Assembly: GCA_022710775.1 (NCBI GenBank)
Contig: JAKLGH010000007.1
Coordinates: 9,184 to 62,133, forward strand
From: Patescibacteria group bacterium
GTDB taxonomy: Bacteria; Patescibacteriota; Minisyncoccia; Minisyncoccales; UBA5738
Direction of reading: 5' to 3'
Length of the DNA stretch: 52,950 nt
In this document: positions 1,406-47,482 of the stretch, piece after piece
How the letters are laid out: each line of letters opens with the position of its first letter
Position numbering within the stretch: the first letter of the stretch is position 1
Made by a program: the position numbers and the translations under genes
The notes under the pieces: model-generated
Seen by the model: only the letters and a program-made list of their open reading frames with translations
Databases searched by the model: none
Told to the model about the DNA's origin: nothing

Positions 1406-1479
1406 TGGTCGGGGCGCAGGGAATCGAACCCTGTCTGCATCCTCCCGAAGGATGTATACTACCGGCATATTCCGCCCCG
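1406..1479 (-). tRNA. tRNA-Pro (anticodon CGG), 74 nt with encoded CCA
   Basis: Cloverleaf built by hand: acceptor CGGGGCG/CGCCCCG with C1:G72 (typical of bacterial Pro), D-stem ATAT/GTAT, anticodon stem CATCC/GGATG with loop TTCGGGA, T-arm CAGGG-TTCGATT-CCCTG, discriminator A plus CCA. Position 8 is G rather than U. Confidence 0.8.
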
Positions 1480-3282: not shown

Positions 3283-3487
3283 GATGTATCCTTTTTTAGC
3301 CGTTTTATACCGATTTTCCGACGGTTCTGCGGTAAAAGGCGTTAGCAAGGTCTTCGCGGCATGCCCGGCCGCACAGCATTTGGCCGGCCGCTTAAGTGAA
3401 TTCAGCTTACATTACAATTTGCTTTTTTTCAATAATTCTGGTATAAAAAGCTAGTGCTTGTTGCCAAAATCGCTCGTTGCGTTTTTT

Positions 3488-3559
3488 GGCCTCTGTAGCT
3501 TAATGGATAAAGTGCCGGTCTTCGGAACCGGCGATGGGGGTTCAATTCCCTCCAGAGGC
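3488..3559 (+). tRNA. tRNA-Arg (anticodon UCG), 72 nt, no encoded CCA
   Basis: Hand-built cloverleaf: acceptor GCCTCTG/CAGAGGC, D-stem GCTT/AAGT, anticodon stem CCGGT/ACCGG with loop CTTCGGA, T-arm GGGGG-TTCAATT-CCCTC. Confidence 0.75.
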
Positions 3560-3645
3560 ACAAGAAAGGAAAAACGGGCGTTAAAGCGTTATCGTCATAA
3601 GACGATAAGGAACGGAAGCGGTTAACAATAGAAAGCAAAAATAAC

Positions 3646-4140
3646 TTGGTCCCAGGGTTTAAAAAAATGAAAAAAACAATACTAAGTTCGTTCGTTATTG
3701 TTTTGTTTTTTGCGGCTGCCGCTCAAGTTTCCGCCTCGGGATTGGTTCCTTGCGGAGGCCCCGAAGAAGCGCCTTGCGATCTTTGTTTTTTGTTCTCGTT
3801 GGTAAAGTCAGCCGTCGATTTTATTCTTCTTACGGTTATTCCGCCCGTTGCCGCCTTGATTATCATCTTGTCGGGAATTAACTTGATGGCCAACAAGAAC
3901 AGCCCGGAAACAATAAATAAAACGAAAAAGGTGTTGTATTCAACGTTTTTCGGACTCGCTATTATTTTTACGGGCTGGGTGGTAATAAACACGGCTTTAT
4001 CGGCAATGAAAATCGCTGTTTGGGAAGCCAATGAAGGAAAATGGTGGAAATTTTCCTTGGTATGCGCCGGCCACGGCGGAGAATACGAGGAAAAAGATCT
4101 TGAAGTGTGCGAGGGAATGGAAAATGAGCAAAATAAGTAA
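3646..4140 (+). CDS. Secreted pilin-like protein: signal peptide, two TM helices separated by a short Lys-containing loop, and a Cys-containing C-terminal tail. Paralogous to the 2-TM domains at 17470-17741 and 18700-18890.
   Basis: The 2-TM module ...SGINLMANKNSPETINKTKKVLYSTFFGLAIIFTGWVVINTAL aligns by eye with the C-terminus of ORF 15381-17741 and the N-terminal part of ORF 18566-19492. It resembles the T4SS (TrbC/VirB2-type) pilins of CPR and Gram-positive bacteria. Confidence 0.55.
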   Translation: MVPGFKKMKKTILSSFVIVLFFAAAAQVSASGLVPCGGPEEAPCDLCFLFSLVKSAVDFILLTVIPPVAALIIILSGINLMANKNSPETINKTKKVLYSTFFGLAIIFTGWVVINTALSAMKIAVWEANEGKWWKFSLVCAGHGGEYEEKDLEVCEGMENEQNK

Positions 4141-4234: not shown

Positions 4235-4306
4235 GCCCCCATAACTCAACGGTAGAGTAACTGCCTCTTAAGCAGTGAGTTGCAGGTTCGAATCCTGCTG
4301 GGGGCA
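4235..4306 (+). tRNA. tRNA-Lys (anticodon CUU), 72 nt, no encoded CCA
   Basis: Hand-built cloverleaf: acceptor GCCCCCA/TGGGGGC, D-stem ACTC/GAGT, anticodon stem ACTGC/GCAGT with loop CTCTTAA, T-arm GCAGG-TTCGAAT-CCTGC. Confidence 0.8.
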
Positions 4307-4392
4307 CATCGAGTCGCGTTATCGGTAAAAAGCTTAAACGAAAATTAATTAAATAATACGTAATAATTTTCTGCGGAATTAAAAAGAAAAAT

Positions 4393-7692: not shown

Positions 7693-7885
7693 GTCCAAAT
7701 GGGCGATTATGCACTTTGAAAAGAAAAAATTAAGGTTTATGATAGAATAAACAACCTCGCTTTTGGGAGAATTGGTTGTTTATTGGTTCTCCGTATAATT
7801 GCGTACTAAAAAAACGCTATCGGAACCAATAATAGCGCAAAACCAAGCTTATGGCAGTTTTCTCAACAATTTATACGCTCCAACC

Positions 7886-10800
7886 ATGCTGAACCTAAAA
7901 CACGGCCAAATCAGAACAATGGCTCAGGATGTTGCGAGCCTCCAAGGAAAAAGCTCCAAGGAAAGCGCGGTGTTGGAAAAAAACACGATAGAAGGCGACT
8001 TGGAGAGCAGGCTGGCAAATACATTGTTAGAAATGGAAAGAAGAAATGCTTCTTCGGGTTTGAGCGTGGAACAGCCGCCGATACAGGCCCAAATTCCGCC
8101 GGCTCCCGGGTTGCCGAATATGCCGGTTCCTGCGCCAACTTCCGCCCCTCCGGACCCTGCGCCTAATCCGCCGCAGCCAGATCCGGCTCTGGCTGGAAAT
8201 TCTCTGGAAAAACAACTGGAAGAAAAAATCGCCAAAGAAATGATGGCTTCTTTGCCGGACTCGTTTGGCCTTCAGATGGAGAAGCCTCCGGCTCCGCCGC
8301 AACCGGCTGCCCAAGAAAACGAAAAAGAAGAAAAAAAGCCCGAATCCGAAAAAATCAAACTTAAGAAGCCGGAACCGGCTGCTTCCCTGAAAGACAATCC
8401 TCCCGCTTTCGAAATTATGCCCAAAAGCGAAGCGGAAATCGAGGAAAAAGTTAAAAAAGAGCTTGAAGAGGAAAGGGAAAAATTAAAATTGCAAAAGTTG
8501 GAATCGGCCGAAAAAGACATTGAGGAAGAAAAAAAGAAAAAACTTGAAGAAAAAACCGCCAAAGAAAAAGAAGATGCGGTAATTTCCGAAGAAGAAAAGA
8601 AAAGGCTGAAGAGAAAAGGGGAGCTTGAATTACCCGTTCTGCTGAAAGAAGCCAAAGAAAGGATTTGCATCGACAGATCCGAAGTGGAAAAACATCTTGC
8701 AGACCTTGCCACCAAAGATGAACCGCTGGAAAAGCAAAGGGCCCAATTGAAAGCCGAAGTGGAATTGGCAAAAAGCGGAGAGCTTGGATTGATCGTTGAG
8801 AAAGAAAAGGAAATTGAAGATAAAAAAGAACGCCTCGAGAAAACCGGCGCTGCCAACCTGACGCTGGCGGACGAAAAGTTGCTGTCCCAAAAGCTCTGGG
8901 ACATCGAAGACAAGAGAAAACAAATAGAAAGAAGAAGATGGGAAATAGAAGACCAAATTACCCGATCTGAGATCGAGATAAAAAAGATCGAATTGGAGCT
9001 GGCCGATAAAAACGAAGAAAGGAACAAGATCAGGGAGGTCGTCAGCAAATTAACCGCCAAGGAAAAACTCATTGATTTTGTCGAAAAGAAAAAAACATGG
9101 ATCAAAGAAATAACCAAGATCAGAGAAGAAAAAGACGGATTGCTCCCGGAGGCGGAGACAATCGCCTCCGAAAAACAGGATAATGAAGACACGCTGAAAG
9201 AATTGATCGAAAGCGAAAAGGCTATTACCGAGGAGCTGAAAATGGTTGAAGAAAAAGAAAAACAAGCGCTAACCTACGATGAGAAAAGAGTGATTGAAAA
9301 AATGCGCTGGAAGGTGGAAAGCGACATGAGAAGGACGATCAAGGAAAAATGGCAGCATGTGCTAGCCAGGGAAAAGATCGACGAAGCTGAAAAAAACATT
9401 CTTGCCAAGATCGAAAATACCGAAAACCGGCTAAAAACACTTGAGGACGAAATATCGGCCGAAGAGATAATTTTGGAAAAAGAAGGGCTCAACGTAAGAA
9501 AAATCCGCGAAGAAATCGGCACGATCTTTGAAGAAACTGGTTTTGATTTTGACGATTCTATTCTGGAAGAGATCGACCAATCGGATTTGGTTATAAGCGA
9601 TTACCATGAAGAAGAAACTGAAGCATGGGTCAAAAAACCGGAAACAAAAGAGCCTGAAGAGGAAACCGAACCGTCTTTCGCCAATCCGGAAAACCCGGTT
9701 CCCGAAAACAAACCGGCGGCCGCGTTTAGGGAAGACGGGGACTATAGAAAAAAAAGCAGCCTGATGGCGGCGGAACCGGCCCAGCCCGCAGAACAAGCGC
9801 CTGTTGATCCGCAAGCGAGGGTGGGCAGGGAACCTCTCGCAGAGGACGCCCGCCCTAATGGCTCGTTTCTGGAACCGATCGACGATAAAGGAATCGGATC
9901 CGCTCCGAAAACAAATTTAGGCTTTCGAGACGTCGGACCGGAACAACCGGCGCCGGCCCTTGACAATCGCTGGCCTCGCGAGAACGAATCTGCGGCTGAC
10001 AACCGAGACTTATCGGCATTATATCAATCGCCCAGGCCAATTAAAAAAGAGACGGAAGAGGAAGAACCGGATAATCCCTGGACGAACCGCTGGAGCCAAA
10101 CGCAAAAACCTTCTTTCCCCGATCCGGAAATAAATCCAATGGCCGCGGCAGCCGGCAGGAAAGAAAGAAATGAAACGAAACAGGATGATGAGCTTTCTTT
10201 ATCGGAAGACCTGCCCGCAAAATCATCGAGCGGGAAAAAACTGATGATCAGGATTTTAATCCTGCTTGTCAGTCTGGCGGTTATCGGCGGAATCGTGCTA
10301 ATCGTTTTCACAAAAAAATCAAACGATAAGCCAAACGAAGAAGAACCGAACACCGAAGAGCCGGCAGGGGACGATGACAGCACGGGGGATGATGACAACG
10401 ATGACAGCACGGGGGATGATGACAACGATGACAGCACGGGGGATGATGACTCTGAACCTCCCGCCGAACCGACCTCGCTGATCTCCACCGTCTCCACTTT
10501 AAACATCAAGGGCGATGGTACCGATATTCCGGATAAGCTGTCCGCTTATCTGGAGAGGAAGTTTGAAGGCGAAGGATATTACCGGATTTTGATCCAAAAT
10601 AAAGACGATGAGTATATCGGCGTCCGGGAATTTTTCGATTTATTCGATTCAAAAACTCCGGATAACCTGTTTGACCACTTATCCGGCAATTTTACGCTTT
10701 TCGTTTACGCCAGCAAGGGAGACAACCGGCTTGGCCTTATCGCAGAAATCTCTGATCCGGACGGATTTGAAAGCCTTATGAAAAAATGGGAGACAACTAT

Positions 10801-11035
10801 GGAAAAGGACTTGGGCGGATTTTTCAAGTTCCTGGGAAAAACAAAAAACGCCTCTCCGTCATTTTTCAAGACCGGATCCATTCCGAACAGTCAGACAAAA
10901 TTCCGGTATCTTTCTTTTCCGCTTCCGCCGTCAAACACGAATTCCGGTCTTTGCTACGCGTCAAACGATAAATATTTCATCCTTACCTCGTCGGGAGAAA
11001 GCTTGATCAAGATCTTTAACCAATTAGTAAACTAA
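7886..11035 (+). CDS. Giant (about 1050 aa) hypothetical protein. It has a Pro-rich N-terminus, a roughly 600-aa E/K-rich coiled coil, a single TM helix (LMIRILILLVSLAVIGGIVLIVF), an acidic DDSTGDDDN tandem repeat (27-nt unit x2.9 at 10374-10451) and a folded C-terminal domain of about 190 aa.
   Basis: ORF track 7799-11035. The TTG at 7799 lies inside a likely -10 element (TATAAT at 7794-7799), so the start was moved to the first ATG at 7886. The start remains uncertain. Composition and repeats were read directly. Confidence 0.5.
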   Translation: MLNLKHGQIRTMAQDVASLQGKSSKESAVLEKNTIEGDLESRLANTLLEMERRNASSGLSVEQPPIQAQIPPAPGLPNMPVPAPTSAPPDPAPNPPQPDPALAGNSLEKQLEEKIAKEMMASLPDSFGLQMEKPPAPPQPAAQENEKEEKKPESEKIKLKKPEPAASLKDNPPAFEIMPKSEAEIEEKVKKELEEEREKLKLQKLESAEKDIEEEKKKKLEEKTAKEKEDAVISEEEKKRLKRKGELELPVLLKEAKERICIDRSEVEKHLADLATKDEPLEKQRAQLKAEVELAKSGELGLIVEKEKEIEDKKERLEKTGAANLTLADEKLLSQKLWDIEDKRKQIERRRWEIEDQITRSEIEIKKIELELADKNEERNKIREVVSKLTAKEKLIDFVEKKKTWIKEITKIREEKDGLLPEAETIASEKQDNEDTLKELIESEKAITEELKMVEEKEKQALTYDEKRVIEKMRWKVESDMRRTIKEKWQHVLAREKIDEAEKNILAKIENTENRLKTLEDEISAEEIILEKEGLNVRKIREEIGTIFEETGFDFDDSILEEIDQSDLVISDYHEEETEAWVKKPETKEPEEETEPSFANPENPVPENKPAAAFREDGDYRKKSSLMAAEPAQPAEQAPVDPQARVGREPLAEDARPNGSFLEPIDDKGIGSAPKTNLGFRDVGPEQPAPALDNRWPRENESAADNRDLSALYQSPRPIKKETEEEEPDNPWTNRWSQTQKPSFPDPEINPMAAAAGRKERNETKQDDELSLSEDLPAKSSSGKKLMIRILILLVSLAVIGGIVLIVFTKKSNDKPNEEEPNTEEPAGDDDSTGDDDNDDSTGDDDNDDSTGDDDSEPPAEPTSLISTVSTLNIKGDGTDIPDKLSAYLERKFEGEGYYRILIQNKDDEYIGVREFFDLFDSKTPDNLFDHLSGNFTLFVYASKGDNRLGLIAEISDPDGFESLMKKWETTMEKDLGGFFKFLGKTKNASPSFFKTGSIPNSQTKFRYLSFPLPPSNTNSGLCYASNDKYFILTSSGESLIKIFNQLVN

Positions 11036-15380: not shown

Positions 15381-17741
15381 ATGCCAATGTTCGATTTTTT
15401 TCATCGAAACTTCATGGTCTGCAATAAAAATTTTTTGCGTTCCCTTGGCTTGTTATTATTTTTGTTGCTGGTTTTTTCGGGAACCAACGTTCAAGCGGAA
15501 GATGATGATGACGAATGCAATCCCTGTTGCCATCACGTTTATTACACTTGCTCAAGCTCCTGCGGCGGCACCTTAAGGGACATACATCAAGACACTTGTT
15601 GCGGCGAATCATGCAACAGCCCCACGTATGATTGCGAGGACTGGCAAAAATGCGACCCGAGCGAAGCGGTCGGCGGAAAATGTTATTGCGACGGTTCCTG
15701 CCTGGAAAAACCCAAGGATCCGGTCTATTACAACAATCCGGAATATGTCCACCAGCCCCAGCACACCGTTGGAGACAAAGACGTCAAGTTGCCGGTAAAG
15801 CTTGAATGGACCGACGTACCCGGATGGAAAAACAAAGGCGGCCCGGGCGCCCATAAAAAAGATCCCTACGGCCCCCAATCCTACGTGATCGCCCTTAAAA
15901 ATACTGCCGTACTGCCGAACGCAGAAGAAGAATACACCAAAGTCCTGCCCGAATCGGAGTTCAATTCGGTATCAGACGGCCAGCCTTGCCTTTTAAAATC
16001 GGCAGCTGAAGTTCCCTGGAACGTAAAGGCCTGTTGCAATACCGACGGCACCAATTGCGGGCCCACGGCTTATTTTTCTTTTACAACCAGCTCGGCTCCC
16101 GAACCGAAGGCGCCTTACGATCCGGACTGGGTAGGGGATAAAGCCGCCGAGAACCTGGGTGTCCATACCGACGTAAACACCTTAAAACTCGAATGGTGCC
16201 CTTTAAGAGACGTGATGGCTTACCGCCTGCTGGCTTACACTGTAGATGGCAAAGAAGAAAAATGCATTCACGCCCTATCGCAAGGCAAAGATTGCAAACC
16301 CTACGATATTATGACGGCGAATGGGGCAGGAATACCTCCAACCTCGTTAAAAAACAGCGACACCGGTTTTTTTACCAAAGATTTTACTTATTCCTGGACC
16401 GTGCAAGGATGCAAAGGTTTGGATGGAATAAATTGCACCGACTGGAGCCAAAAATGGAAATTCAAATTAAATGATTTTGCTTTAGAACCCCCCAGCCTTT
16501 ACGCCCCTCCCGACGATCCGGAAGGCAAAACACCGGTCGGTCTGCCCGTTAAATTCGCTTGGGACGGCAAAGCCGGAAGCAACTCATACATCTTTGACTT
16601 AACCGGCGTAGCCTTAACGAACGAGGAAAAAAACCGCAAGATATCAACAGTAACGATAGACTATCCAAAGCTCCAACTTGACAAAATCTATACTTGGCGC
16701 GTCAAACCTTGCTGGGATTATGAATCAAAAGAATGCGAAGACGCCGCCTGGTCCAAAACTTTCACTTTCCGGACAACCGGCCGGCCTCCGATCCCGGAAT
16801 CAATGAAACCGGAAGGCAGCAATGTCGGATTGCCGGCTATCTTTACCTGGGAAAACGTCCCGGGCGCGAAATCGTTTGTTTTTCAAATAGAAGGCAATGG
16901 GATAAATTTAGAAAGAACCGTAATCGATCCTAAAGTGGCGGATATCGGCTCTCCCGACCTGAAACCCGAAAAAACCTATGTCTGGAAAGTTAAAACCTGC
17001 GCCCGCGAAGCGGGGGAATTATGCGGCGAATGGAGCGAAACGAAAAGCATCACAATTTCCGCCATCGGCGCGCCGACCAATCCCAATCCTCCCGACGGAT
17101 CAACCATCTATTCCGACGAACTGCCTAAAGACCTCACCTGGGACAAAGTTGACGGAGCCGGCGCTTACAGAACAACCATTACCTACACGGCGAAAGACGC
17201 GGACGAAACCAGTGAATGCCCGACCGGAACGTCAAAAGAACAGATAGTTTTGGGCCCAGCCCATCAAATCAGCTCTTCCTGCCTGGGAACTTACGTTTGG
17301 CAGGTCCAGTCGTGCCTTGATACCGAATGCAAGTTATTGGGCGGCACCGGTCCGGAATGGACGCTTAACATCAAACAAAACCCCGATAACGCGAAAACAA
17401 CGGGAGGCCTGGTTATTTGCGGCCGGAATTACGACAATCCAGACACCTCTTGGAACGAAAGAAACGCCTGCAACATCGGCCATATTTTTCTTATGCTCCA
17501 GGTGATCTTCGAATTCTTTCTTTTCCGGCTGTCGATCGTTATTCTGGTAATACTGGTGCTGATCACCGGCGTGATCTTTTACACATCGCTAGGCGACGCG
17601 GCCACGATCCAGCGGGTGAAAAGCCTCTGGCGGGCGGCAGGATTAGGCTATCTTATCGTGCTGTTTGGCTGGGTGGTCGTATCGGTTCTGCTTACGGTTC
17701 TGGGCTTCCAGTTCGGTTCGTGGTGGAAAATTAAAAACTGA
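15381..17741 (+). CDS. Large surface protein. It has a signal peptide, an N-terminal Cys-rich module, five ~100-aa Fn3/Ig-like repeats (recurrent L.W...PGA.SY.....YxWxVxxC...C.EWS motif), and a C-terminal 2-TM pilin-like domain.
   Basis: The repeats were aligned by eye. The C-terminal TGVIFYTSLGDAATIQRVKSLWRAAGLGYLIVLFGWVVVSVLL matches the 2-TM modules of ORFs 3646-4140 and 18566-19492. Confidence 0.6.
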   Translation: MPMFDFFHRNFMVCNKNFLRSLGLLLFLLLVFSGTNVQAEDDDDECNPCCHHVYYTCSSSCGGTLRDIHQDTCCGESCNSPTYDCEDWQKCDPSEAVGGKCYCDGSCLEKPKDPVYYNNPEYVHQPQHTVGDKDVKLPVKLEWTDVPGWKNKGGPGAHKKDPYGPQSYVIALKNTAVLPNAEEEYTKVLPESEFNSVSDGQPCLLKSAAEVPWNVKACCNTDGTNCGPTAYFSFTTSSAPEPKAPYDPDWVGDKAAENLGVHTDVNTLKLEWCPLRDVMAYRLLAYTVDGKEEKCIHALSQGKDCKPYDIMTANGAGIPPTSLKNSDTGFFTKDFTYSWTVQGCKGLDGINCTDWSQKWKFKLNDFALEPPSLYAPPDDPEGKTPVGLPVKFAWDGKAGSNSYIFDLTGVALTNEEKNRKISTVTIDYPKLQLDKIYTWRVKPCWDYESKECEDAAWSKTFTFRTTGRPPIPESMKPEGSNVGLPAIFTWENVPGAKSFVFQIEGNGINLERTVIDPKVADIGSPDLKPEKTYVWKVKTCAREAGELCGEWSETKSITISAIGAPTNPNPPDGSTIYSDELPKDLTWDKVDGAGAYRTTITYTAKDADETSECPTGTSKEQIVLGPAHQISSSCLGTYVWQVQSCLDTECKLLGGTGPEWTLNIKQNPDNAKTTGGLVICGRNYDNPDTSWNERNACNIGHIFLMLQVIFEFFLFRLSIVILVILVLITGVIFYTSLGDAATIQRVKSLWRAAGLGYLIVLFGWVVVSVLLTVLGFQFGSWWKIKN

Positions 17742-17750
17742 TAATTTCAA

Positions 17751-18545
17751 ATGAGGCCGGCAAGCTTATCCATCATAATAATCTTCGCGATGATCCCGAT
17801 CCTGGCCATTTTGGCATACGGCCAGTTTAAAACCGCTTTCAGTTCGGAATTCGACGCCGGCGCGCCGGAACCGATCCTAACCAAATTTGACCCTGGCCAA
17901 AGCCTGGAAGGGTTAAAAAAGGAAAAAAATCCGGAACGGCTGGAATTCCGCGATCCTGCCGGCAAGCTGAAAATCAGCTACGATTCTTCCTGGACCAAGG
18001 CCGAAGACGATATCATCAAAAAAGCCGATAACCTAGCCCAATTGGAAAACGAAGATCTGCTGCTGCTGCTTTACAAAGTGGATTTTAACAGCTTCCAGCC
18101 GTCTTATCTGGCTGTCGAGCGCGTCAAAAATGGGAATTGGAACGACATAGTGGCAACAATGGAACAGGAAGCAAAAGCTAAAAACCAGGCAATGGAAGTC
18201 TTAAGATCGGACATCTCAAAAAACCGGGTAAGCCTGGAAATAAAATTCGTTTCGGCGGCTGATGCAAAAAATAAGATCACGACCCGCCAGTGGGCTGAAA
18301 TACTGGTCGACGGGGATGAAAGCTATATCGTTTTGCTGATGACCACGGAACAAAACTGGCCGGCATTCGAAAAAGAAGCTGGCGAGATCGCCGGCTCCAT
18401 AGAGTTCCTCGGCCAACCCTTAACCCCGGCGGTAGAAGAACAGCCAAATATTGATAACGATCCAGCCGCTGGCAACGGCGACAGTTCCAGCGATGCCGGC
18501 GTCATTAAAGCCATCGGCATCCCGGCGCCCGAACAAAACAATTAA
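17751..18545 (+). CDS. Hypothetical secreted or membrane-anchored protein (N-terminal signal-anchor), located inside the pilin locus
   Basis: ORF track. N-terminal hydrophobic helix. No family recognised. Confidence 0.5.
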   Translation: MRPASLSIIIIFAMIPILAILAYGQFKTAFSSEFDAGAPEPILTKFDPGQSLEGLKKEKNPERLEFRDPAGKLKISYDSSWTKAEDDIIKKADNLAQLENEDLLLLLYKVDFNSFQPSYLAVERVKNGNWNDIVATMEQEAKAKNQAMEVLRSDISKNRVSLEIKFVSAADAKNKITTRQWAEILVDGDESYIVLLMTTEQNWPAFEKEAGEIAGSIEFLGQPLTPAVEEQPNIDNDPAAGNGDSSSDAGVIKAIGIPAPEQNN

Positions 18546-18565: not shown

Positions 18566-19492
18566 ATGGCCAAACCAATCAACAAAAAATTATTTTCCTT
18601 GCTGGCGGTTGCCGGATGTTTCGCGTTTTTCGCGCTGGCCTACGCCCTGGAAACTTCCTGGCCGGAATCTCCGATGAAAACCAAGGTTGACGACACAACC
18701 AACCTGGCTGTTTTCATCAAATACATTTACGAGTGGGGGATAGCGCTGGGCGGCGTGGCAACCTTTATCGCTTTTGTGATCGCCGGGTTCCAATACATCA
18801 CTTCTATCGGCGATCCGCAAACCATGAAGGACGCCGTCGACCGCATCAAATCGGCGATGTTTGGCCTGGTGTTGCTGTTATCGGCTTACGTTCTGTTGAA
18901 TACCATCAATCCCGAATTGGTAAGCTTCCGCCTCGACCCTTTTAATCCCCAGCTTAACGGAGAATTTTTTGAGTCTTGCCAGGCAAACAGCGGCACTTGC
19001 AGACCAGGATACGAATGTAAATTACTTGGCGAAAAAGGCATCTGCTGGCCAAAAGATTATGCCGGCCCGGTCTGTAAAGATGCCGAAATCTATTCGCAAA
19101 CCAATTTCAAAGGGACTAAAACCGTCCTTAGCGTCAACGAAACCCTTGAAGGCGGAGACAACATGCCCAAATCGGTCAGAGCCCGATACATAGACGATGA
19201 TTGCAAAGAATACCTGAAAAAAAATAAAGACAAAGTGGACGGCAGAACCAGCTGTTATTGCGATGAACGGGTTGCTCCCAGCGGCGGGGAGGAAGAAGAT
19301 TCGACTACGATGGTCGGAGAGAAAAACGGCTGCGGCTGCGTGCTCCGGCTTTATAACGAAGATGACGGCTGGCTTTGGTCCGATTGCGGGGATGTGATCA
19401 CGGACGTGCCGGCCTACGAAGCCGATCTGACCCAATGGTTCGACCGGGACGTATATTGCGTGGAGCTTCTGTCGCCCGGAGCCGATAAGTAA
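18566..19492 (+). CDS. Pilin-like protein: signal peptide plus a 2-TM pilin-like domain, followed by a C-terminal Cys-rich extracellular domain
   Basis: AGFQYITSIGDPQTMKDAVDRIKSAMFGLVLLLSAYVLLNTI is paralogous to the other two pilin-like modules. The C-terminus contains about 14 Cys. Confidence 0.6.
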   Translation: MAKPINKKLFSLLAVAGCFAFFALAYALETSWPESPMKTKVDDTTNLAVFIKYIYEWGIALGGVATFIAFVIAGFQYITSIGDPQTMKDAVDRIKSAMFGLVLLLSAYVLLNTINPELVSFRLDPFNPQLNGEFFESCQANSGTCRPGYECKLLGEKGICWPKDYAGPVCKDAEIYSQTNFKGTKTVLSVNETLEGGDNMPKSVRARYIDDDCKEYLKKNKDKVDGRTSCYCDERVAPSGGEEEDSTTMVGEKNGCGCVLRLYNEDDGWLWSDCGDVITDVPAYEADLTQWFDRDVYCVELLSPGADK

Positions 19493-19519: not shown

Positions 19520-22294
19520 ATGGATAAAATTCCCAAAAAACCCAAATCGTTCCAAAGAGCCGTCATGGCTCTGGTTTCGGCTCTTACTATATTTACTTTA
19601 GTTATACCCGCATCTGCTGACGCCATCCTGCTCGACGATATTACCGGCATTTTCGAGAACGCTCTGGAAGCAAGCGACGAAGTAACATCGCCCCTTCTTT
19701 CCGTAGTTCCCAAGGTTGTCGTATATTATTCCCTTAGTCTGGTCTGTCTGGGTTTTTCAACCAGCACTTTAGAGTGGGTGATCAAAAACCCAAATTGGAT
19801 CAATCTTAGGGGAAAAGCGGTCACCAAGGGCTGGGCTCTGACCAGGGGAATGGCCAATATGTTCCTTTTGCTGATCTTTTTGGTCATCGCTTTCGGTTTC
19901 ATTTTAAGGCTCGAGTCGGTTGACGCGCCAAAGGCCCTGCCGCGGCTGATCATCGTCGCCCTTTTGATCAACTTCAGCAAGCTGTTTGTCGGCATGCTCG
20001 TTGATTTCGCGACAATCGCCAACAATACCATCATCTATGGCCACGAAGACTTGTTGAGAACGGTTGTAGATGGACTCGCTGGTTCTATATACGCTACTTT
20101 TGGCGTTATGCTTACGGGAGTGGTTAAATCCATCCTGGCCTATGCTGTTCCGCTGGCCGGTTTGCCTAAAGTTCTTATTACGGCCAGCTCCCTGCTTTTT
20201 AAAGGAGAATTTATCTCCCTTATGCCGATATGGGTAAGCCAGATCGTCGCCGCGTCGGCCCTGACGATGATTTTCTGCCTTTATATCATTTTGTTTGTCG
20301 CGCGCGTTTTTATTATCCAGATCTTGGCAATTTTGTCGCCCCTGGCCTTCCTGTGCCTTATTCTGCCGCAAACCCAAAAATACTGGGACGAGTGGCTTAA
20401 GCATCTCATCCAATGGACCTTTGTGGGAACAGTTTTGCTTTTCTTTTTAATGATCGGCTTAAGCGCCGGCAACGCGCTTTTGCCCAGCGCTAGCGATCCG
20501 GACCCGTTCACTTGGGGTAATTTGTTTCCCGTTCTCAACGTCCCCAAGTTTTTCATTTATTACATGTTTTTGTTCATTTATCTGGCGGTATCGTTCTGGA
20601 TGGTTGACCGCACCATGCCCATACTTGCCGTATCGATCATGGGCATGTCGCAAGGCCTGGCTTCCAAAGCCTGGAAAATGGGCGGCAAACAAGCCAAAGA
20701 TGACCTGTTCCAGCGCATAAACGAAAAAGCTGTGGCGCATCAAAAGCGGGACAAGGATTCTAGAGATGATAGCGGCAACCTTACGCTGGCCGGCAATGAC
20801 CGATTGATCCACCAGGCAAAAAGCTTTGCTTTTGCGCCAGTTCATGGTTTTCACCGCCTGAAACGAACCACGCCCAAACAGGCAGTCATCAAAGGCCAGA
20901 TGGCGGCTCGTGAACGGATGGAAAAGCTTTACGGAAAAGATGACGACGGCGTAGACCGGTTCATGGAAGCAATGGATGCCAATCCCAAGCTTCTCGGACA
21001 AATGGGCGCCACCGAACGGGTCGGCGCGCTTGAATACGGTTTAAAATATAAAGGTACTGAATTTGTTCAAAGCTTGCGCAAAAAAGGGGTACTCCATGAC
21101 ACCTTGCAACAAGCCGCCCCTTACAGCATGAGTAATGTTATCAAGGCGGTCGGATATGATCCGGCCAGTTTACAAGGCGCTAAAGGCCAAGCAATCGCCA
21201 GAACGATCGTAAAGGAAGATTCAAAAGGCAAAGAGAATCGTCATTTAGCCGAATACATCCATGGCAATATCGGCGACGCGGCACTCAACCAGAAAGCTGC
21301 CCTTTATACGGGCGCGGCAAAAATTATGGAGAAAAAAGATACCAGCGACAATTGGGATAGGGGCGTTTTCAAGATCAATCCCACCGATACGCCAGAAGAT
21401 CAACAAGCCACTCGCGATCTTCAGGAGGGTATTGCCTTTAAGGCAAGTAGCGGCCAGATCAGGAATATCGGCGATAAGCATGGCCAGGACGTTTTGGACG
21501 CAATTCAGGGGGAAATTGTTGAAAAGGATTATGGAAAATTCGCCGTTGCCAATCCTAAACTGGCCAACGCTCAAGCTATTAATTCCGGAACCGCGGAAGT
21601 TTTTCCGGCGCCTGACGATATCGCTTACATAACCGATCCGCAAACCGGCTTGGCTAAAAAACGGAAAAAAGAGCAGATGCAAGAAAGGATCCAAGGCGTC
21701 ATTAATGAAGAAAGGAACCGGCGGCCGGGACGTGGCCAACAAGCAGGCCAAAGAGCGCAGGGCGGCCGGCAACGCACCACCGGCCCTGGCCAGCAGCATT
21801 GGGGCAACCAGGGAGACGATACGGGCGATCAAGGCAATACGCCTCCTCCCGGCGGAGGGCCGGGACCGGGTACGCCGCCGCCTCCCGGAGGGCCGGGACC
21901 GGGCGGAGGAGCCGGAGGCGCAGGCGGTAGCAGGCGAGCCGGACAACGGACCGGCGCCGGCCCGGAATCGGGATTTGGCGGCGCGACGCGCAGGCAACAG
22001 GCCAGCCAAAGGCCGGGACAAGAAAACTTTGGCGATTTTGGCCGCAGCCGCCCGGGATCAGGCCGTAATCAGGACGCGCGCGACCAAGCCAACCAGACTA
22101 CATACCGCGAGCAAGAAGAAGAAAGGCAAGAAACCGAGCGTGCCGCGCAAGAAGCCGGGCGGCGCTATCCCAACGACGATCTGCGCGATCGCGACCGGCG
22201 GGACAGGGACGGCGGAACCACGCCCAGCGGCCGCACAACCGGCGTTTACCCGGACGACGTTAGTCGGCGCGGCGGAATCAACGGAAATCCTTAA
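19520..22294 (+). CDS. VirB6/TrbL-like polytopic membrane protein (signal peptide plus about 8 TM helices) with a roughly 330-aa low-complexity Gly/Pro/Arg/Gln/Asp-rich C-terminal tail
   Basis: TM-helix topology and size resemble VirB6/TrbL family proteins. The tail contains an imperfect tandem repeat at 21843-21910 (PPPGGGPGPGTPPPPGGPGPGGG). Confidence 0.55.
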   Translation: MDKIPKKPKSFQRAVMALVSALTIFTLVIPASADAILLDDITGIFENALEASDEVTSPLLSVVPKVVVYYSLSLVCLGFSTSTLEWVIKNPNWINLRGKAVTKGWALTRGMANMFLLLIFLVIAFGFILRLESVDAPKALPRLIIVALLINFSKLFVGMLVDFATIANNTIIYGHEDLLRTVVDGLAGSIYATFGVMLTGVVKSILAYAVPLAGLPKVLITASSLLFKGEFISLMPIWVSQIVAASALTMIFCLYIILFVARVFIIQILAILSPLAFLCLILPQTQKYWDEWLKHLIQWTFVGTVLLFFLMIGLSAGNALLPSASDPDPFTWGNLFPVLNVPKFFIYYMFLFIYLAVSFWMVDRTMPILAVSIMGMSQGLASKAWKMGGKQAKDDLFQRINEKAVAHQKRDKDSRDDSGNLTLAGNDRLIHQAKSFAFAPVHGFHRLKRTTPKQAVIKGQMAARERMEKLYGKDDDGVDRFMEAMDANPKLLGQMGATERVGALEYGLKYKGTEFVQSLRKKGVLHDTLQQAAPYSMSNVIKAVGYDPASLQGAKGQAIARTIVKEDSKGKENRHLAEYIHGNIGDAALNQKAALYTGAAKIMEKKDTSDNWDRGVFKINPTDTPEDQQATRDLQEGIAFKASSGQIRNIGDKHGQDVLDAIQGEIVEKDYGKFAVANPKLANAQAINSGTAEVFPAPDDIAYITDPQTGLAKKRKKEQMQERIQGVINEERNRRPGRGQQAGQRAQGGRQRTTGPGQQHWGNQGDDTGDQGNTPPPGGGPGPGTPPPPGGPGPGGGAGGAGGSRRAGQRTGAGPESGFGGATRRQQASQRPGQENFGDFGRSRPGSGRNQDARDQANQTTYREQEEERQETERAAQEAGRRYPNDDLRDRDRRDRDGGTTPSGRTTGVYPDDVSRRGGINGNP

Positions 22295-22345: not shown

Positions 22346-22377
22346 AGAAAAATAAAATAGGGATCTTGATATCCCTA
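22345..22377 (-). terminator. Terminator hairpin for the minus-strand SPFH gene (TAGGGAT-cttgat-ATCCCTA, T-rich on the minus strand). It overlaps the stop codon.
   Basis: Read directly. Confidence 0.5.
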
Positions 22378-23589
22378 TTCTTCCTCTTTATTTGATTTTC
22401 CTTTTTGTTGTGGCTGCCCTCCTTGCCTGGCCTGCATACCCCGCGACAATAAATGAAGCGGGGTAGTAAGACCCAACGGATCCTTGCCTTCGAGGCCAGA
22501 AACCTCTATTTGTTCCTGGTGCACATCTTTCTTGATAAGCTTGCGGAATAACAACCAGGTTTCCGTAGCTTTCTCCGGGTTCAGGCCGATTCTATCCCGC
22601 AACTCAATGATTGAATCGCGGAAATGCTCCCGCTCGGTCTTCTCGGACCTCTGCTCCAGTTCTTCTTTTGCCAGATCATCCCTGGCTTTCTGGATATAAT
22701 CCGGCAAGCCGATATCCGGTACCGTAATTTGCAGAATCTCGATACCGACAAGCCGAAGAACAAGGTGCCTGGAACCGTTATTAAAAGAACTGATCATTTC
22801 CGATTTCAAGGCTTCGTCTTCGACGTTGACAATCGTGCTGATGATCGCTTCGCGAAAACCCTTTTTATCTTTTAAGGCCTTTTCCATCTTTTTTGTAATG
22901 GCGTATTCACGAATCCCTTGATTAGTTGGATCGCTAATAATGTCTTCCACGCCTGCCGCTTGCCCGACATCCAGATAGCGAATGACGGAAAACGGATTCT
23001 TGTAATCAGGGTGCCAGGTCATGGAAGCTAAAACCCCGATTGTCCCATTCTTAACAGCAACTCTCACTTGGGACAAATCAGTGTTTTTATCCATCACATC
23101 GATCCGGATCACATCCCAAATAAAGGGGATCACCAGGCAGTATCCCTCTTGAACAAGATAAGGAATCCTGCCTCCCATCCAGGTACGAATGCCGATCTGT
23201 TTCGGCGTTGCCTGCACTTCCTTAATAAATAAAATTGCAAGCAAGCCGCTGGCCGCGAAACAACATAGAGCTTGGGTAAAATTTACCCAAACCCCGCCGG
23301 CCAGATAATAAAGGCCCAAAGCTAAGGGTAAGACCAGCAACAATCCGGCGAGCACATTCATGCGATGCTCAAGACTAGCCGCAGCAGCCATCTCTGTTTG
23401 CTGTTCTTCTGTATATTCAGAGCGCCCACTTGCTGTGGGTGCCGGCGTTTCTACCGCTGGTTCCGGTTCAGGCCTTGGTAGCCCATGTTCCGAACCTTCT
23501 GCCGGATTTTGATCTGTTCCGGCATTGCGCCCCGGCGTATCATCTTCGGAAGGTAGTACCGGGCCGTGCATTGGCCCAAAATTATCCAT
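22375..23589 (-). CDS. SPFH/band-7 (stomatin/prohibitin-like) membrane protein with a disordered N-terminal extension
   Basis: Two N-terminal hydrophobic helices are followed by a region with the flavour of an SPFH core (IRTWMGGRIPYLVQEGYCLVIPFIWDVIRIDVMDKNTDLSQVRVAVKNGTIGVLASMTWHP) and a coiled-coil C-terminus. Confidence 0.55.
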   Translation of the reverse strand: MDNFGPMHGPVLPSEDDTPGRNAGTDQNPAEGSEHGLPRPEPEPAVETPAPTASGRSEYTEEQQTEMAAAASLEHRMNVLAGLLLVLPLALGLYYLAGGVWVNFTQALCCFAASGLLAILFIKEVQATPKQIGIRTWMGGRIPYLVQEGYCLVIPFIWDVIRIDVMDKNTDLSQVRVAVKNGTIGVLASMTWHPDYKNPFSVIRYLDVGQAAGVEDIISDPTNQGIREYAITKKMEKALKDKKGFREAIISTIVNVEDEALKSEMISSFNNGSRHLVLRLVGIEILQITVPDIGLPDYIQKARDDLAKEELEQRSEKTEREHFRDSIIELRDRIGLNPEKATETWLLFRKLIKKDVHQEQIEVSGLEGKDPLGLTTPLHLLSRGMQARQGGQPQQKGKSNKEEE

Positions 23590-24372: not shown

Positions 24373-24810
24373 ATGAATTTCATCCTACCCCAATTCATCG
24401 ATATGGAAACCAAGGTGATCGGACCGCTCACTTTGAAGCAATTCATATACCTCGGGATCGGGGGCGGAGCGTCGCTCTTCCTTTACATGATGTCAACCTC
24501 CAATCCGGAGGGGTTTCCTTTAATAGCCTGCCTGGCTATAGTGATACTCATTATGCTGGTTTCGTTCGCCCTCGCCTTCGTTAAGGTGAACGGGATAACT
24601 CTGCCGGTACTGATAAAACATTCCTTCCTTTTTAACCTGGCGCCCAAAATTTATCTTTGGAAAAAATTCCCTAACGCCAAAATCGTCAACCCAAACCAGG
24701 GAGTGATTAAAATAGTAAAAGGACCGGCAAGCAAAAAAGCCGACCGGGTCACTACAAAAAAAAGCGAACTGAAAAAATTAAGGAACTTTATGGAAACGAA
24801 AGGCAATTGA
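24373..24810 (+). CDS. PrgI/VirB3-like small membrane protein of a Gram-positive-type T4SS
   Basis: A 145-aa protein with an N-terminal motif (IPQFIDMETKVIGPLTLKQFIYL) and two TM helices, lying immediately upstream of VirB4. This is the typical PrgI-PrgJ arrangement. Confidence 0.6.
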   Translation: MNFILPQFIDMETKVIGPLTLKQFIYLGIGGGASLFLYMMSTSNPEGFPLIACLAIVILIMLVSFALAFVKVNGITLPVLIKHSFLFNLAPKIYLWKKFPNAKIVNPNQGVIKIVKGPASKKADRVTTKKSELKKLRNFMETKGN

Positions 24811-24832: not shown

Positions 24833-25459
24833 ATGGCATTCACATCAACCCAACAATTCCTAGAGATCGACCAGATAAAAGAAGGCGTTATCGTCTTAAA
24901 AAACAAGGCTCTGCGCGGCCTCCTGATGGTTTCTTCGATCAATTTCGCTTTAAAAGCGGAAGACGAGCAAACCGCCATTATTTACCAATTCCAGAGTTTT
25001 CTCAATTCGCTGGATTTTTCGCTGGAAATTTTTATCCAAAGCCGGCAGCTGAATATCACGAATTACCTGGATAAGTTAAAAGACCTGGAAATAAGGCAAA
25101 CCAACGACCTTTTAAGGATCCAAACCGCCGAATACCGAAAGTTCATCAATGAGCTGATATCGTCGGGTTCGATCATGAATAAAACCTTTTACGTGGTCAT
25201 CCCTTTCACTTTGATGAATCTGCCTAACCTCCCGAAATCAAAAGAAGCGGCCAGGTCCGCCAGCGAGGAACAATTCCAGCGCGCCAAATCCCAGTTATGG
25301 CAGCGGATGGAATTCGTGGCGCTCGGCCTCCGGCGCTGCGGCCTTCAATGCGTTCCGTTGAACAGCCTGGAACTGGTTGAATTCTTTTGGAGCCTGTACC
25401 ATCCGCAGGAATCGGAAAGCGGTTATTATCCTGAAATCCCGCCGGAGCTGATAACTTGA
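24833..25459 (+). CDS. virB4: VirB4/TraC-family ATPase, N-terminal fragment (208 aa)
   Basis: ...IDQIKEGVIVLKNKALRGLLMVSSINFALKAEDEQTAIIYQFQSFLNSLDFSLEIFIQSRQLN resembles the extreme N-terminus of Gram-positive VirB4 (PrgJ/ConE-like) proteins. It terminates at a TGA at 25457-25459. Confidence 0.55.
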   Translation: MAFTSTQQFLEIDQIKEGVIVLKNKALRGLLMVSSINFALKAEDEQTAIIYQFQSFLNSLDFSLEIFIQSRQLNITNYLDKLKDLEIRQTNDLLRIQTAEYRKFINELISSGSIMNKTFYVVIPFTLMNLPNLPKSKEAARSASEEQFQRAKSQLWQRMEFVALGLRRCGLQCVPLNSLELVEFFWSLYHPQESESGYYPEIPPELIT

Positions 25460-25487: not shown

Positions 25488-27278
25488 ATGGGTCTTTTCT
25501 CTTCCAAAAAAAAGCAAAAAAAACAGGATTTAGGCCAAAGCCTCGAGATCAACACGATCAATATCAAGGATATCATCGCGCCTTCTTCGATCGCTTTGTC
25601 CAGCGAATATCTTAAGCTGGGGGAAAAATTCGGAAAATCCTTCTTTATTTTTTCTTATCCGCGCTATTTGACGACGGGGTGGTTTGCGCCGATCATCAAT
25701 CTGGAAAGCCCGATGGATATTTCTTTCCATATCCATCCGATCGAGACAGGAACAACGTTGAAACAGCTGCGGAAAAAGCTCACTGAAGTGCAAGCCGAGC
25801 TGATGGAAAGGGAAGAAAAGGGGTTGGTGCGCGATCCCGCGCTGGAAATCGCTTACCAGGACCTTGAATCCCTCCGCGACAAGCTCCAAACCTCCCAAGA
25901 GCGCATGTTCAAGCTTGGAATATACCTTACGGTTTATGAAAATTCCTTGGAAAAATTGAAATCCGTTGAAACGACCCTCCGGTCGATACTTGAATCGAAA
26001 TTAATATATATCAAGCCGTCTCTTTACCAGCAAAAGGAGGGATTCACTTCAACCTGCCCTTACGGTTTAGACGAGATCAATGCGCATACTCCGATGAATA
26101 CCGGACCGCTTTCTTCAACTTTCCCCTTCATCTCCTTTGATTTAAGCGCCAACGACGGCATCCTCTACGGCGTGAACCTCCACAATAATTCTTTGATCCT
26201 GTTTGACCGGTTCAGCCTTGAAAACGCCAACAGCGTGATCTTCGCCAAATCCGGCGCCGGTAAGAGTTACGCCATCAAGCTGGAAGTCCTGCGCTCCATG
26301 ATGATGGGAGTTGAATCGATCATCGTCGATCCGGAAAACGAATACCGGGCCCTCGCGGAAGCGGCCGGAGGTTCATTCATCAACATCTCCCTTACGTCGC
26401 CAAACCATATCAATCCGTTCGATTTGCCGATCCCGCGAGACGACGAGGATCCGGAAAACGTGTTGCGCAGCAATATTATCAACCTGGTTGGCCTTGTCCG
26501 GATCATTTTAGGGGGCTTGTCGCCCGAGGAAGACGCGATCATCGACCGGGCCCTCACGGAAGTTTACGCCGCCAAAGACATCACGCCGGAAACCGACCCC
26601 AGCCTCTGGAAAGAAAGAACGCCGTTGATGCAAGATCTGGAAGCCGTGCTTGAAGGCATGGAAGGAACGGAATCGCTTGTAAGGAGAATCAGAAAATTCA
26701 CCAAGGGAACGTACGCGCAATTTTTCAACCAGCCAAGCAATATCTCAATGGATAAGCTGATGGTGGTTTTCGGCATCCGCGACATGGAGAACGAGTTGCG
26801 TACGGCAGCAATGTTTATTATTATGCGCCATATCTGGAACAAAGTAAGGATGACTTTGAAAAAAAGAATCTTGGTGGTCGACGAGGCTTGGTGGCTTATG
26901 CAAACCGAAGATGGAGCGTCTTTCCTGTACGGTCTTTGCAAAAGGGCCAGAAAATACTGGCTTGGCGTTACCACCATCACGCAAGACGTTGGCGATTTCA
27001 TGAAATCAACTTATGGCCAGCCGATTATTACCAACTCATCGATACAGTTTTTAATGAAGCAATCTCCGGCAACGATCGATATCCTCCAAAAAACTTTTAA
27101 CCTTACCGAAGGAGAAAAAAATCTTTTGCTCGAAGCCGAAGTGGGGGAGGGGCTTTTCTTTGCCGGCCAGAAACACGTTGCCATAAAAGGAATCGCTTCC
27201 TACGTGGAAGATCAAATCATCACCACCAGCCCCGAAGAGATCCAAAAGATCAAAAAGGCAAAAAGCGGCAACGAATGA
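25488..27278 (+). CDS. virB4: VirB4/TraC-family ATPase, main fragment (596 aa)
   Basis: Walker A FAKSGAGKSYAI and Walker B ILVVDEAWW, plus the VirB4 N-domain motif KFGKSFFIFSYPRYLTTGWFAPIIN. It is in a different reading frame from the upstream fragment. The two frames overlap over only about 5 nt around 25455. Confidence 0.85.
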   Translation: MGLFSSKKKQKKQDLGQSLEINTINIKDIIAPSSIALSSEYLKLGEKFGKSFFIFSYPRYLTTGWFAPIINLESPMDISFHIHPIETGTTLKQLRKKLTEVQAELMEREEKGLVRDPALEIAYQDLESLRDKLQTSQERMFKLGIYLTVYENSLEKLKSVETTLRSILESKLIYIKPSLYQQKEGFTSTCPYGLDEINAHTPMNTGPLSSTFPFISFDLSANDGILYGVNLHNNSLILFDRFSLENANSVIFAKSGAGKSYAIKLEVLRSMMMGVESIIVDPENEYRALAEAAGGSFINISLTSPNHINPFDLPIPRDDEDPENVLRSNIINLVGLVRIILGGLSPEEDAIIDRALTEVYAAKDITPETDPSLWKERTPLMQDLEAVLEGMEGTESLVRRIRKFTKGTYAQFFNQPSNISMDKLMVVFGIRDMENELRTAAMFIIMRHIWNKVRMTLKKRILVVDEAWWLMQTEDGASFLYGLCKRARKYWLGVTTITQDVGDFMKSTYGQPIITNSSIQFLMKQSPATIDILQKTFNLTEGEKNLLLEAEVGEGLFFAGQKHVAIKGIASYVEDQIITTSPEEIQKIKKAKSGNE

Positions 27279-46492: not shown

Positions 46493-46557
46493 AACGCCGT
46501 TCGAAACCGAGAGGCTCTTTGCTGGTAAAAAAGATACGCAGTAATCGTCGGATGATC

Positions 46558-47442: not shown

Positions 47443-47482
47443 CCAAAAACCGCAGCCTAGCCATAATTTCAAAGAATTACCG

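Follow-up and report, generated by a model that had tools for sequence, protein, structure and literature searches.

The stretch of DNA analysed here, hereafter the window (52,950 nucleotides of contig JAKLGH010000007.1, assembly GCA_022710775.1), belongs to the chromosome of an ultra-small member of Candidatus Paceibacterota (Patescibacteria) and adjoins the replication origin, with dnaA at 29922 and dnaN at 31641. At positions 18566–19492 it encodes a protein of 308 amino acids (aa) in which a pilin core is followed by a Cys-rich C-terminal domain. On balance, we favour the interpretation that this protein is the conserved second pilin of an oriC-proximal chromosomal type IV secretion system (T4SS) of Paceibacteria, in which the core would anchor or polymerise the subunit and the ectodomain would be displayed for host recognition. 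The gene is laid out as follows:

18566–19492, forward strand: decorated T4SS pilin gene, 308 aa, ATG start (list of open reading frames [ORFs] with translation; PF18895; identical to the public protein HOX30365.1, annotated as "pilin")
18566–18646, forward strand: predicted signal peptide, aa 1–27, ending in AYA before LETSWP (hydrophobic aa 7–31; helix at aa 7–27 in an AlphaFold2 [AF2] model; Sec-type)
18647–18922, forward strand: pilin core, aa 28–119, with a LExxWPxSP motif, two hydrophobic helices and a G-D-P turn with K/R (Pfam, AF2)
18923–19051, forward strand: linker and predicted four-Cys β-hairpin mini-module with C138, C145, C151 and C160 (AF2; linker at aa 121–132, predicted local distance difference test score [pLDDT] <50)
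19052–19489, forward strand: probable βγ-crystallin-like β-sandwich, aa 163–308, with conserved C170, C232, C256, C258, C274 and C298

PF18895 (T4SS_pilin) matched aa 46–114 with 36.3 bits, against a cut-off of 26.6. Both hydropathy and the AF2 model place a helical hairpin at aa 47–79 and aa 84–114; the model was built on an alignment of 30 full-length homologues (30–71% identity) and has a mean pLDDT of 80.5. Across these 30 sequences 27 columns are invariant, 25 of them within the core. A family-conserved A-x-A followed by the LExxWPxSP motif suggests cleavage of the signal peptide after AYA. A lipobox-like VAGC also occurs within the signal peptide, at aa 15–18 (18608–18619); a lipoprotein is an unlikely reading of it, because its Cys is limited to the 10 closest relatives and the conserved A-x-A/LE..WP.SP motif lies downstream of that Cys.

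Exactly three ORFs, and nothing else, matched when hidden Markov models (HMMs) made for the pilin module of each of the two larger families were run against the six-frame translation of the window. The other two are:

15381–17741, forward strand: 786-aa pilin gene, encoding a signal peptide, a Cys-rich β domain, about six FN3-like modules and a GLVxCG-type pilin hairpin
3667–4140, forward strand: small near-bare pilin, 157 aa, public protein HOX30376.1, with a mature N-terminus GLVPCG...C..C and a 45-aa tail with two Cys

Homology links the core of the 308-aa protein to that of the 786-aa protein (hhalign probability 95.6%, E 1.2e-8), the two being about 25% identical. The pilin-module HMM of the 786-aa family also matches the small pilin (E 1.8e-16), whose core is of the 786-aa subtype (GLVPCG...C start), while the 308-aa core is more distant (E 2.6e-5). 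Taken alone, the 786-aa protein gave no PF18895 match and the 157-aa protein only weak PF18895 and TrbC matches (E 3e-4; PF18895 21.1 bits, below the 26.6 cut-off); at the family level, 14 of 28 members of the 786-aa family match PF18895 (best 2.3e-9), as do all 12 members of the 157-aa family at E ≤0.01 (best 5e-11), six of which also match TrbC. The hairpin loops of the three proteins are TSIGDPQTMKDAVDRIK, ANKNSPETINKTKK and TSLGDAATIQRVK. The motif of a class III signal peptide (G followed by F/M-x-x-x-E) is present in none of the three N-termini, and, with their Sec-type signal peptides and two-helix hairpin, the three belong with the VirB2/TrbC-like pilins of T4SSs and not with the pilins of type IV pili. 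In the public annotation only the 308-aa gene is named pilin, HOX30367.1 (786 aa) and HOX30376.1 (157 aa) both being "hypothetical protein"; some homologues of the 786-aa protein in other metagenome-assembled genomes (MAGs) are named pilin.

Pilins with grafted adhesive modules are known from type IV pili, where Streptococcus sanguinis PilB and PilC are minor subunits. The likeness, a conserved polymerising module joined to a grafted adhesive module, is one of concept only; type IV pilus pilins belong to another machine and have an unrelated fold, a class III signal peptide and a single N-terminal helix. The conjugative VirB2/TraA/TrbC pilins of diderm T4SSs (T-pilus, F-pilus) share with the present proteins the signal peptide, two hydrophobic helices, a basic loop and weak TrbC Pfam matches. 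The known VirB2-type pilins are small and bare, however, whereas folded domains of 190–650 aa are predicted here; the present system belongs to a monoderm host, lacks VirB5, VirB7, VirB9 and VirB10, and is known from genes, not filaments. The cores, that of the 308-aa protein among them, also have weak profile similarity (E 2e-5, 7e-3) to the "Mbov_0395 family pilin-like conjugal transfer protein" of Mycoplasma integrative and conjugative elements (NCBIfam NF045849), likewise from a monoderm MPF-FATA context, but the scores (24 and 16 bits) are far under the 40-bit cut-off and the Mycoplasma proteins are bare hairpins of about 80 aa.

The C-terminal region of the 308-aa protein (aa 120–308) holds 12 Cys in 189 aa, a 13th Cys lying in the signal peptide. 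The earlier note on this DNA, made from the sequence alone, had described a signal peptide, a pilin module and a domain of about 190 aa with roughly 14 Cys; all of this stands except the Cys count. At 6.3%, the Cys density is about nine-fold that of the other 39 ORFs of the window (0.68%), an enrichment that is not due to chance (binomial P = 1e-8). The AF2 model predicts a double Greek-key β-sandwich, with pLDDT 83–95 across the β core strands. The first Greek-key signature is present (Y176-x4-F181-x-G183, with S203 conserved in at least 90% of the sequences). The second is degenerate (LRLYNEDDGWLWSDCGD), with a conserved Cys (C298) at the Ser position, and in place of the Ca2+-binding motif N/D-N/D-x-x-S/T-S the protein has D198-N-M-P-K-S203, with Lys at the S/T position; the family consensus at this site is xxxPKS, both acidic/amide positions being unconserved. 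Profile searches did not place the domain among the crystallins: aa 120–308 had no Pfam match at an E-value of 0.01 or better, crystallin models included, and the profile of the 308-aa family gave 0 matches to PDB sequences at an E-value of 10 or better. Because the first signature is kept, the second is degenerate, no crystallin profile matches and the Ca2+ motif is unconserved, we refer to the domain as "βγ-crystallin-like", an assignment that we consider quite probable. A single-sequence search with the domain against 1.84 billion representatives returned nine matches, all of them pilin fusions except a repeat protein (P0158), whose match covers a 39-residue motif only and was judged spurious.

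Conservation of the disulfide pattern, which the earlier note had raised as a check, is borne out within the family as far as the Cys positions are concerned. C170, C232, C256, C258, C274 and C298 are each found in 26–30 of the 30 sequences; C138, C145, C151 and C160 of the mini-module are jointly present in 25 and jointly absent in five; and C213 and C230 occur as a lineage-specific pair in the present sequence only. In 29 of the 30 sequences an even number of Cys follows the core. This pattern matches the look of fully disulfide-bonded extracytoplasmic domains, and the conserved Cys would form disulfides. MdbA-like oxidoreductases and VKOR are enriched in genomes of the candidate phyla radiation (bioRxiv 10.1101/335083). 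Compared with microbial βγ-crystallins (Protein S, Clostrillin, Nitrollin, Spherulin 3a, Neurospora crassa APP and DdCAD-1), the domain shares the predicted double Greek key, the Y-x4-F-x-G...S signature of the first motif and an extracellular setting, DdCAD-1 being a cell-adhesion molecule. It differs in the missing sequence-level match, the Cys-for-Ser second motif and the unconserved Ca2+ motif, and in having three conserved disulfides (predicted), a variable insertion of 40 aa and the fusion to a pilin.

The 786-aa protein is built the other way round. Its AF2 model (pLDDT 80.6) contains a small Cys-rich β domain at aa 50–117, in the N-terminal part, followed by about six β-sandwich modules (aa 140–665) that Foldseek matched to FN3 arrays at E 1e-14, and then by the pilin hairpin at aa 699–773, with helices at aa 699–735 and 740–773. 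The earlier note had taken the Cys-rich region of the 308-aa protein as an echo of this N-terminal module. Alignment of the C-terminal domain with the N-terminal Cys-rich region or with the whole ectodomain of the 786-aa protein gave family-profile hhalign probabilities of 0.2–0.3% and a best BLASTP E-value of 0.2, and the predicted folds differ, being βγ-crystallin-like in one case and a small β domain plus FN3 array in the other. The echo is one of composition, shared by extracellular domains, and not of ancestry.

These data also bear on the proposal that the Cys-rich domains are copies of one module and the three pilins phase- or condition-specific alternatives. The three are indeed the most Cys-rich proteins of the window, and the presence of several divergent VirB2 paralogues has, in other bacteria, been connected with antigenic variation (see PMC12102498). 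Common descent of the Cys-rich domains is contradicted by the alignments and folds just described; as to alternation, the search for phase-variation elements found no invertible or long repeats, inverted or direct, and no simple sequence repeats in promoters able to drive switching, only short repeats at chance level, an A8 tract within the gene (at 19217) and a single CTG x4. Moreover, each gene forms a separate orthologous group in a fixed slot across distant relatives, and the two pilins of the main locus lie in one operon-like string with gaps of 9–27 nt. We regard this proposal as highly improbable. The related suggestion of the earlier note, that three pilin genes with three different decorations encode modular subunits, fits the occurrence of the same core with many ectodomains described below.

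All three pilins have orthologues of 62–85% identity on contigs with the same gene order, and all are under purifying selection: pairwise dN/dS values are 0.08–0.18 for the pilins (0.09–0.14 for the small pilin), as compared with 0.01–0.02 for the flanking rpsO and NYN genes, dS being near saturation so that all these values are rough. Each of the three genes represents an ancient orthologous group with a conservation of its own, and they are not recent paralogues. Within the 308-aa gene the two parts diverge at very different rates. Relative to close relatives the core is 89% identical and the C-terminal domain 50–61%, and dN is 0.07–0.09 in the core versus 0.30–0.45 in the C-terminal domain.

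Beyond close relatives, the core is found with other ectodomains. In a census with one genome per species, 386 loci encode the 308-aa core subtype. Among the best 78 of these 386 loci, from 78 species genomes, we counted 113 core-bearing ORFs, almost all of which continue for 80–860 aa after the core, often with many Cys; the crystallin-like domain is present on 25 of the 113, and several of these loci have two to four such genes in tandem. Partial matches share the core at 50–60% identity and carry different decorations: extra Cys-rich repeats (P0032, P0056), other C-terminal β domains (P0017, P0021, P0042) or N-terminal Ig-like Kre9_KNH, He_PIG or TIG domains (P0053, P0058, P0077). Compared with the core, the ectodomain evolves much faster, and it is exchanged among relatives. 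The slot of the 786-aa gene, which precedes the 308-aa gene (pilin-1 and pilin-2, respectively), varies in a similar fashion, from one FN3-like module (242 aa, L005/L006) to about six (786 aa), with family members of up to 1333 aa.

The two decorated pilin genes sit in a T4SS locus that is itself conserved. Together with the following genes, they make up the core of the locus:

17751–18545, forward strand: conserved non-pilin gene between the two locus pilins, 264 aa, with one N-terminal transmembrane segment, no Cys and weak resemblance to PsbP
19520–22294, forward strand: VirB6/TrbL-like polytopic membrane protein (PF04610 at E 8.5e-4, below the cut-off; multiple transmembrane segments; position conserved in relatives)
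24373–24810, forward strand: PrgI (VirB3-like; PF12666, 39.3 bits, cut-off 27)
24833–25459, forward strand: VirB4 N-terminal domain/TrsD-like protein of a split VirB4 (NCBIfam matches to N-terminal parts of VirB4 models and to TrsD)
25488–27278, forward strand: VirB4-like ATPase of the CD1110 (monoderm MPF-FATA) family (NCBIfam NF045971, 376 bits, cut-off 325; PF19044)

The 786-aa pilin, the 264-aa single-transmembrane protein, the 308-aa pilin and the VirB6-like protein are encoded in one string, with intergenic gaps of 9–27 nt. The VirB6-like gene is followed by an SPFH gene on the opposite strand, a gene for a 131-aa protein, and those for PrgI/VirB3, the VirB4 N-terminal/TrsD-like protein and the CD1110-family VirB4; PrgI and VirB4 are encoded 5–6 kb from the two pilins. 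Housekeeping genes surround the locus (cca, rpsO, pnp, a comM-like gene and ksgA), and rnpA, yidC and jag lie just upstream of dnaA. The order ksgA, pilin-1, single-transmembrane protein, pilin-2, VirB6...PrgI, TraC-like protein, VirB4...dnaA is kept in relatives whose pilin-2 is only 31–36% identical; their counterparts of 24833–25459 match PF26593 (TraC-like).

Several features of the locus deserve mention in their own right. The VirB4 function is split into a 208-aa N-terminal/TrsD-like protein and a 596-aa CD1110-family ATPase, and the same split was seen in all relatives examined. The 264-aa gene always lies between the two locus pilins and is present in this slot in L005–L009; it is the fastest-evolving gene of the operon (42–47% identity among close relatives), its product having weak PsbP/PsbP_2 Pfam matches in three of six relatives and a PDB match to ywmB at E 0.025. 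The VirB6-like protein ends in a low-complexity, G/P/R/Q-rich tail of about 200 aa, which contains a 33-nt tandem duplication (21838–21903). The SPFH/Band 7 gene (22375–23589, reverse strand) separates two T4SS operons, with a bidirectional terminator-like hairpin at 22356–22379; its slot holds an SPFH/Band 7 gene in L007, a 418-aa gene without a recorded family match in L009 and small ORFs in L005/L006.

The system is the one that Quinonero-Coronel et al. (2025; PMC12102498) described for Patescibacteria; with their account and that of Wang et al. (2023; PMC10633639) it shares the dnaA/ksgA/rnpA/rpmH neighbourhood and an MPF-FATA-type VirB4, PrgI/VirB3 and VirB6, the window containing neither a relaxase nor a coupling protein. 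The VirB2 arrays described there comprise two to 11 pilin genes, in tandem or split by one non-pilin gene, near virB4 and with low mutual identity (PMC12102498); here, likewise, two pilin genes of low identity are split by one non-pilin gene, with virB4 at 25488. The present case differs in that both locus pilins are decorated and a third pilin is encoded outside the locus between two tRNA genes. In neither publication did we find pilins fused to folded ectodomains mentioned. The pilin array and its genomic context had been known before; what appears to be undescribed is the decoration of the pilins, the crystallin-like domain and a tRNA-flanked pilin of such deep conservation.

The small pilin lies 11.2 kb upstream of the main locus, outside the T4SS string, in the following surroundings:

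3419–3447, forward strand: promoter-like TTGCTT-17 nt-(TGG)TATAAA, 40 nt upstream of tRNA-Arg (from the sequence; conserved in L001, partly in L010)
3489–3561, forward strand: tRNA-Arg (anticodon TCG), directly ahead of the small pilin (ARAGORN; Rfam 70.5 bits)
4235–4307, forward strand: tRNA-Lys (anticodon CTT), downstream of the small pilin and upstream of rpsO (ARAGORN; Rfam 73.6 bits)

The position between tRNA-Arg and tRNA-Lys, about 11 kb away, had been pointed out in the earlier note with tRNA coordinates that were 1–2 nt off. The same note had read 3646–4140 as a minimal pilin with a short Cys-bearing tail, a description that the family-wide PF18895 matches support apart from the start: the mechanical ORF begins with TTG at 3646, homologues and public annotation begin with ATG at 3667, and the latter is most likely the real start. 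The protein has five Cys, three near the mature N-terminus and two in the tail. The order cca (reverse strand), tRNA-Arg(tcg), small pilin, tRNA-Lys(ctt), rpsO, NYN and pnp is repeated in L004 and L001, where the pilin is 85% and 67% identical, and, at the level of gene lists, is also kept on a contig with a pilin of 51% identity. In L010 (about 35% identity) it is kept from tRNA-Arg onward, with the pilin starting 24 nt after the tRNA. The position, raised in the earlier note as something to compare in relatives, is thus deeply conserved, and, given the dN/dS values above, non-conservation cannot be held against this gene.

Since tRNA genes are common integration sites and the small pilin is so far from the T4SS locus, one might suppose that it was left behind by a mobile element that had once inserted at a tRNA gene. 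The same gene order in relatives of 85%, 67% and about 35% identity, the absence of an integrase or repeats around the gene and a dN/dS of about 0.1 speak against this origin. We consider it extremely improbable and, on the synteny, reject a mobile island.

A consensus scan found no terminator-like site between 3489 and 4393, that is, from tRNA-Arg to rpsO; the scan for promoters did not report the element at 3419–3447. As the counts of both scans were at or below shuffle expectation, we used them only for the absence of terminators between the tRNAs and the small pilin. It seems reasonable to suppose that tRNA-Arg, pilin, tRNA-Lys and rpsO are probably carried on one transcript, for which the element at 3419–3447 is a candidate promoter. 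A perfect 8-bp hairpin at 3589–3608 (forward strand; TTATCGTC-ATAA-GACGATAA), between tRNA-Arg and the small pilin, has no T-run after it, a fold z-score of –1.67 and no clear conservation in relatives.

How might these proteins work together? We suggest that the 308-aa protein is exported by Sec and that its VirB2/TrbC-like hairpin inserts into the membrane in such a way that its short, basic loop points inward and its two ends point outward. With both hairpin termini outside, the C-terminal appendage (linker, four-Cys mini-module and β-sandwich) would be carried outward. In the solved T-pilus, VirB2 adopts a U shape, its two ends exposed on the outside of the filament and its loop lining the lumen (bioRxiv 10.1101/2022.09.25.509369). 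The termini of the membrane precursor are outside as well, so that a domain on either terminus would be displayed outward; both types of fusion exist here, C-terminal in the 308-aa and N-terminal in the 786-aa protein. The conserved core would anchor or polymerise at the VirB6/VirB3/VirB4 machine, while contact with the exterior, most likely with a ligand on the surface of the host cell, would be made by the fast-evolving, exchangeable ectodomain. The 786-aa protein would achieve the same display from its opposite end, where a Cys-rich tip domain and an FN3-like stalk precede the hairpin.

The small pilin is the best candidate for the abundant, major subunit, because it is near-bare and stands in a housekeeping context in which it is probably co-transcribed and probably highly expressed; the decorated pilins would then be minor subunits or tip adhesins. 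From the parameters of the T-pilus we computed that a VirB2-type subunit has only about 6.4 nm2 of outer surface, so that decorated pilins would fit better as minor or tip components. More tentatively, it is possible that Paceibacteria T4SSs build a filament or stalk from VirB2-like subunits with large outward ectodomains, which would make them the first "modular T4SS pilins", with the bare pilin, made from a housekeeping transcript punctuated by tRNAs, as major subunit and swappable disulfide-rich domains (βγ-crystallin-like, FN3 stalks, Ig-like and others) on the minor subunits, which would decide what host cells the epibiont can attach to and tap.

Several points weigh against the display of host-recognition domains on a pilin assembly. 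Structural searches with the pilin hairpin retrieved generic helical hairpins only, with no VirB2/TraA chain among the top matches, and the family profile matched no PDB sequence, as noted above. The C-terminal domain departs from the crystallins in its second Greek-key motif and its Ca2+ site. Homopolymers of the heavily decorated subunits would be crowded at about 6.4 nm2 each. Furthermore, we infer both the major and minor roles and the common transcript of the small pilin. Finally, according to reviews, T4SS pili have yet to be seen in Patescibacteria, where "pilin" is the name of a family, together with essentiality by transposon sequencing (Tn-seq) in one Saccharimonadia species (PMC10633639, PMC12857230).

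The last point leads to the main rival explanation, in which the hairpin is a membrane anchor or an element associated with the T4SS channel and no filament exists; the 308-aa and 786-aa proteins would then be surface receptors, adhesins or wall-spanning parts of the T4SS, and the small protein a channel or stalk component. Monoderm MPF-FATA systems are normally pilus-free (PMC12102498), and nearly every member of the core subtype carries an ectodomain of 80–860 aa, which would be hard to pack on the surface per subunit computed above. However, the core keeps the VirB2/TrbC hallmarks of signal peptide, hairpin and basic G-D-P loop, and its conservation (89% identity; 25 of the 27 invariant columns) far exceeds what a mere anchor would need. 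Moreover, a near-bare pilin of the same family exists, and the pilin array is essential by Tn-seq in Southlakia epibionticum, a Saccharimonadia species (PMC10633639; PMC12857230). An anchor without a filament is therefore, in our judgement, unlikely.

The protein might instead be a pro-pilin, whose C-terminal 190-aa domain is removed at maturation and then either broken down or set free as a secreted factor, so that a small pilin of the usual kind remains. TrbC-type pilins such as TrbC of RP4 do lose C-terminal residues in processing, and a disordered linker of 12 residues (aa 121–132, pLDDT <50) separates the core from the domain in the present model. But this linker is not conserved as a cleavage motif, and profile scans found neither a TraF-like nor any other dedicated peptidase in the locus. 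The domain itself is predicted to be folded, is rich in Cys that would form disulfides and is under purifying selection; in relatives, decorations are also found N-terminal of the core, behind the signal peptide, where a removable tail is impossible. Such processing is very improbable, and we retain the second-pilin interpretation, in which the ectodomain would stay attached to its core.

The window has other features that touch none of the above. A 1078-aa ORF (7799–11035, forward strand), rich in E/K/P/A and with two Cys only, coincides with an AT skew of 0.41 at 8001–10000; it has no Pfam or NCBIfam match and is kept in place in close relatives (1072 and 1062 aa), with a GH3 protein instead in L005. 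A solitary PilB/PilT-like T2SSE ATPase (38502–39830, reverse strand; PF00437, E 2e-117) has no other recognisable type IV pilus genes near it in the window. ARAGORN called a tRNA-Pro(cgg) at 1406–1479 (reverse strand), which is conserved in L001 and L004 and is absent from the list of the Rfam scan at gathering thresholds. Fpg-like (46519–47442) and HolA-like (47336–48421) ORFs, both on the forward strand, overlap by 107 nt in the mechanical ORF list, the HolA-like start probably lying further downstream.

The T4SS is essential in the one Patescibacterium tested; its role has been called "completely unknown" (PMC11665869), and reviews have singled out its VirB2-like pilins as the oddity of a monoderm T4SS (PMC12857230). 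For the genome at hand, two "hypothetical protein" annotations are corrected to pilins, and the near-bare pilin in its tRNA and ribosomal-protein context becomes a structural-subunit candidate that can be put to the test. Should pilins with this type of core serve mostly as scaffolds that display fast-evolving, exchangeable, disulfide-rich ectodomains, these domains would be soluble, expressible candidates for host-surface ligands, and their diversity could be mined across thousands of MAGs. Even without a filament, a large family of surface proteins is defined whose anchor is a hairpin of pilin origin; and if the modular-pilin reading is true, the hypervariable repertoire of ectodomains would be a readable host-range code for uncultured Patescibacteria.

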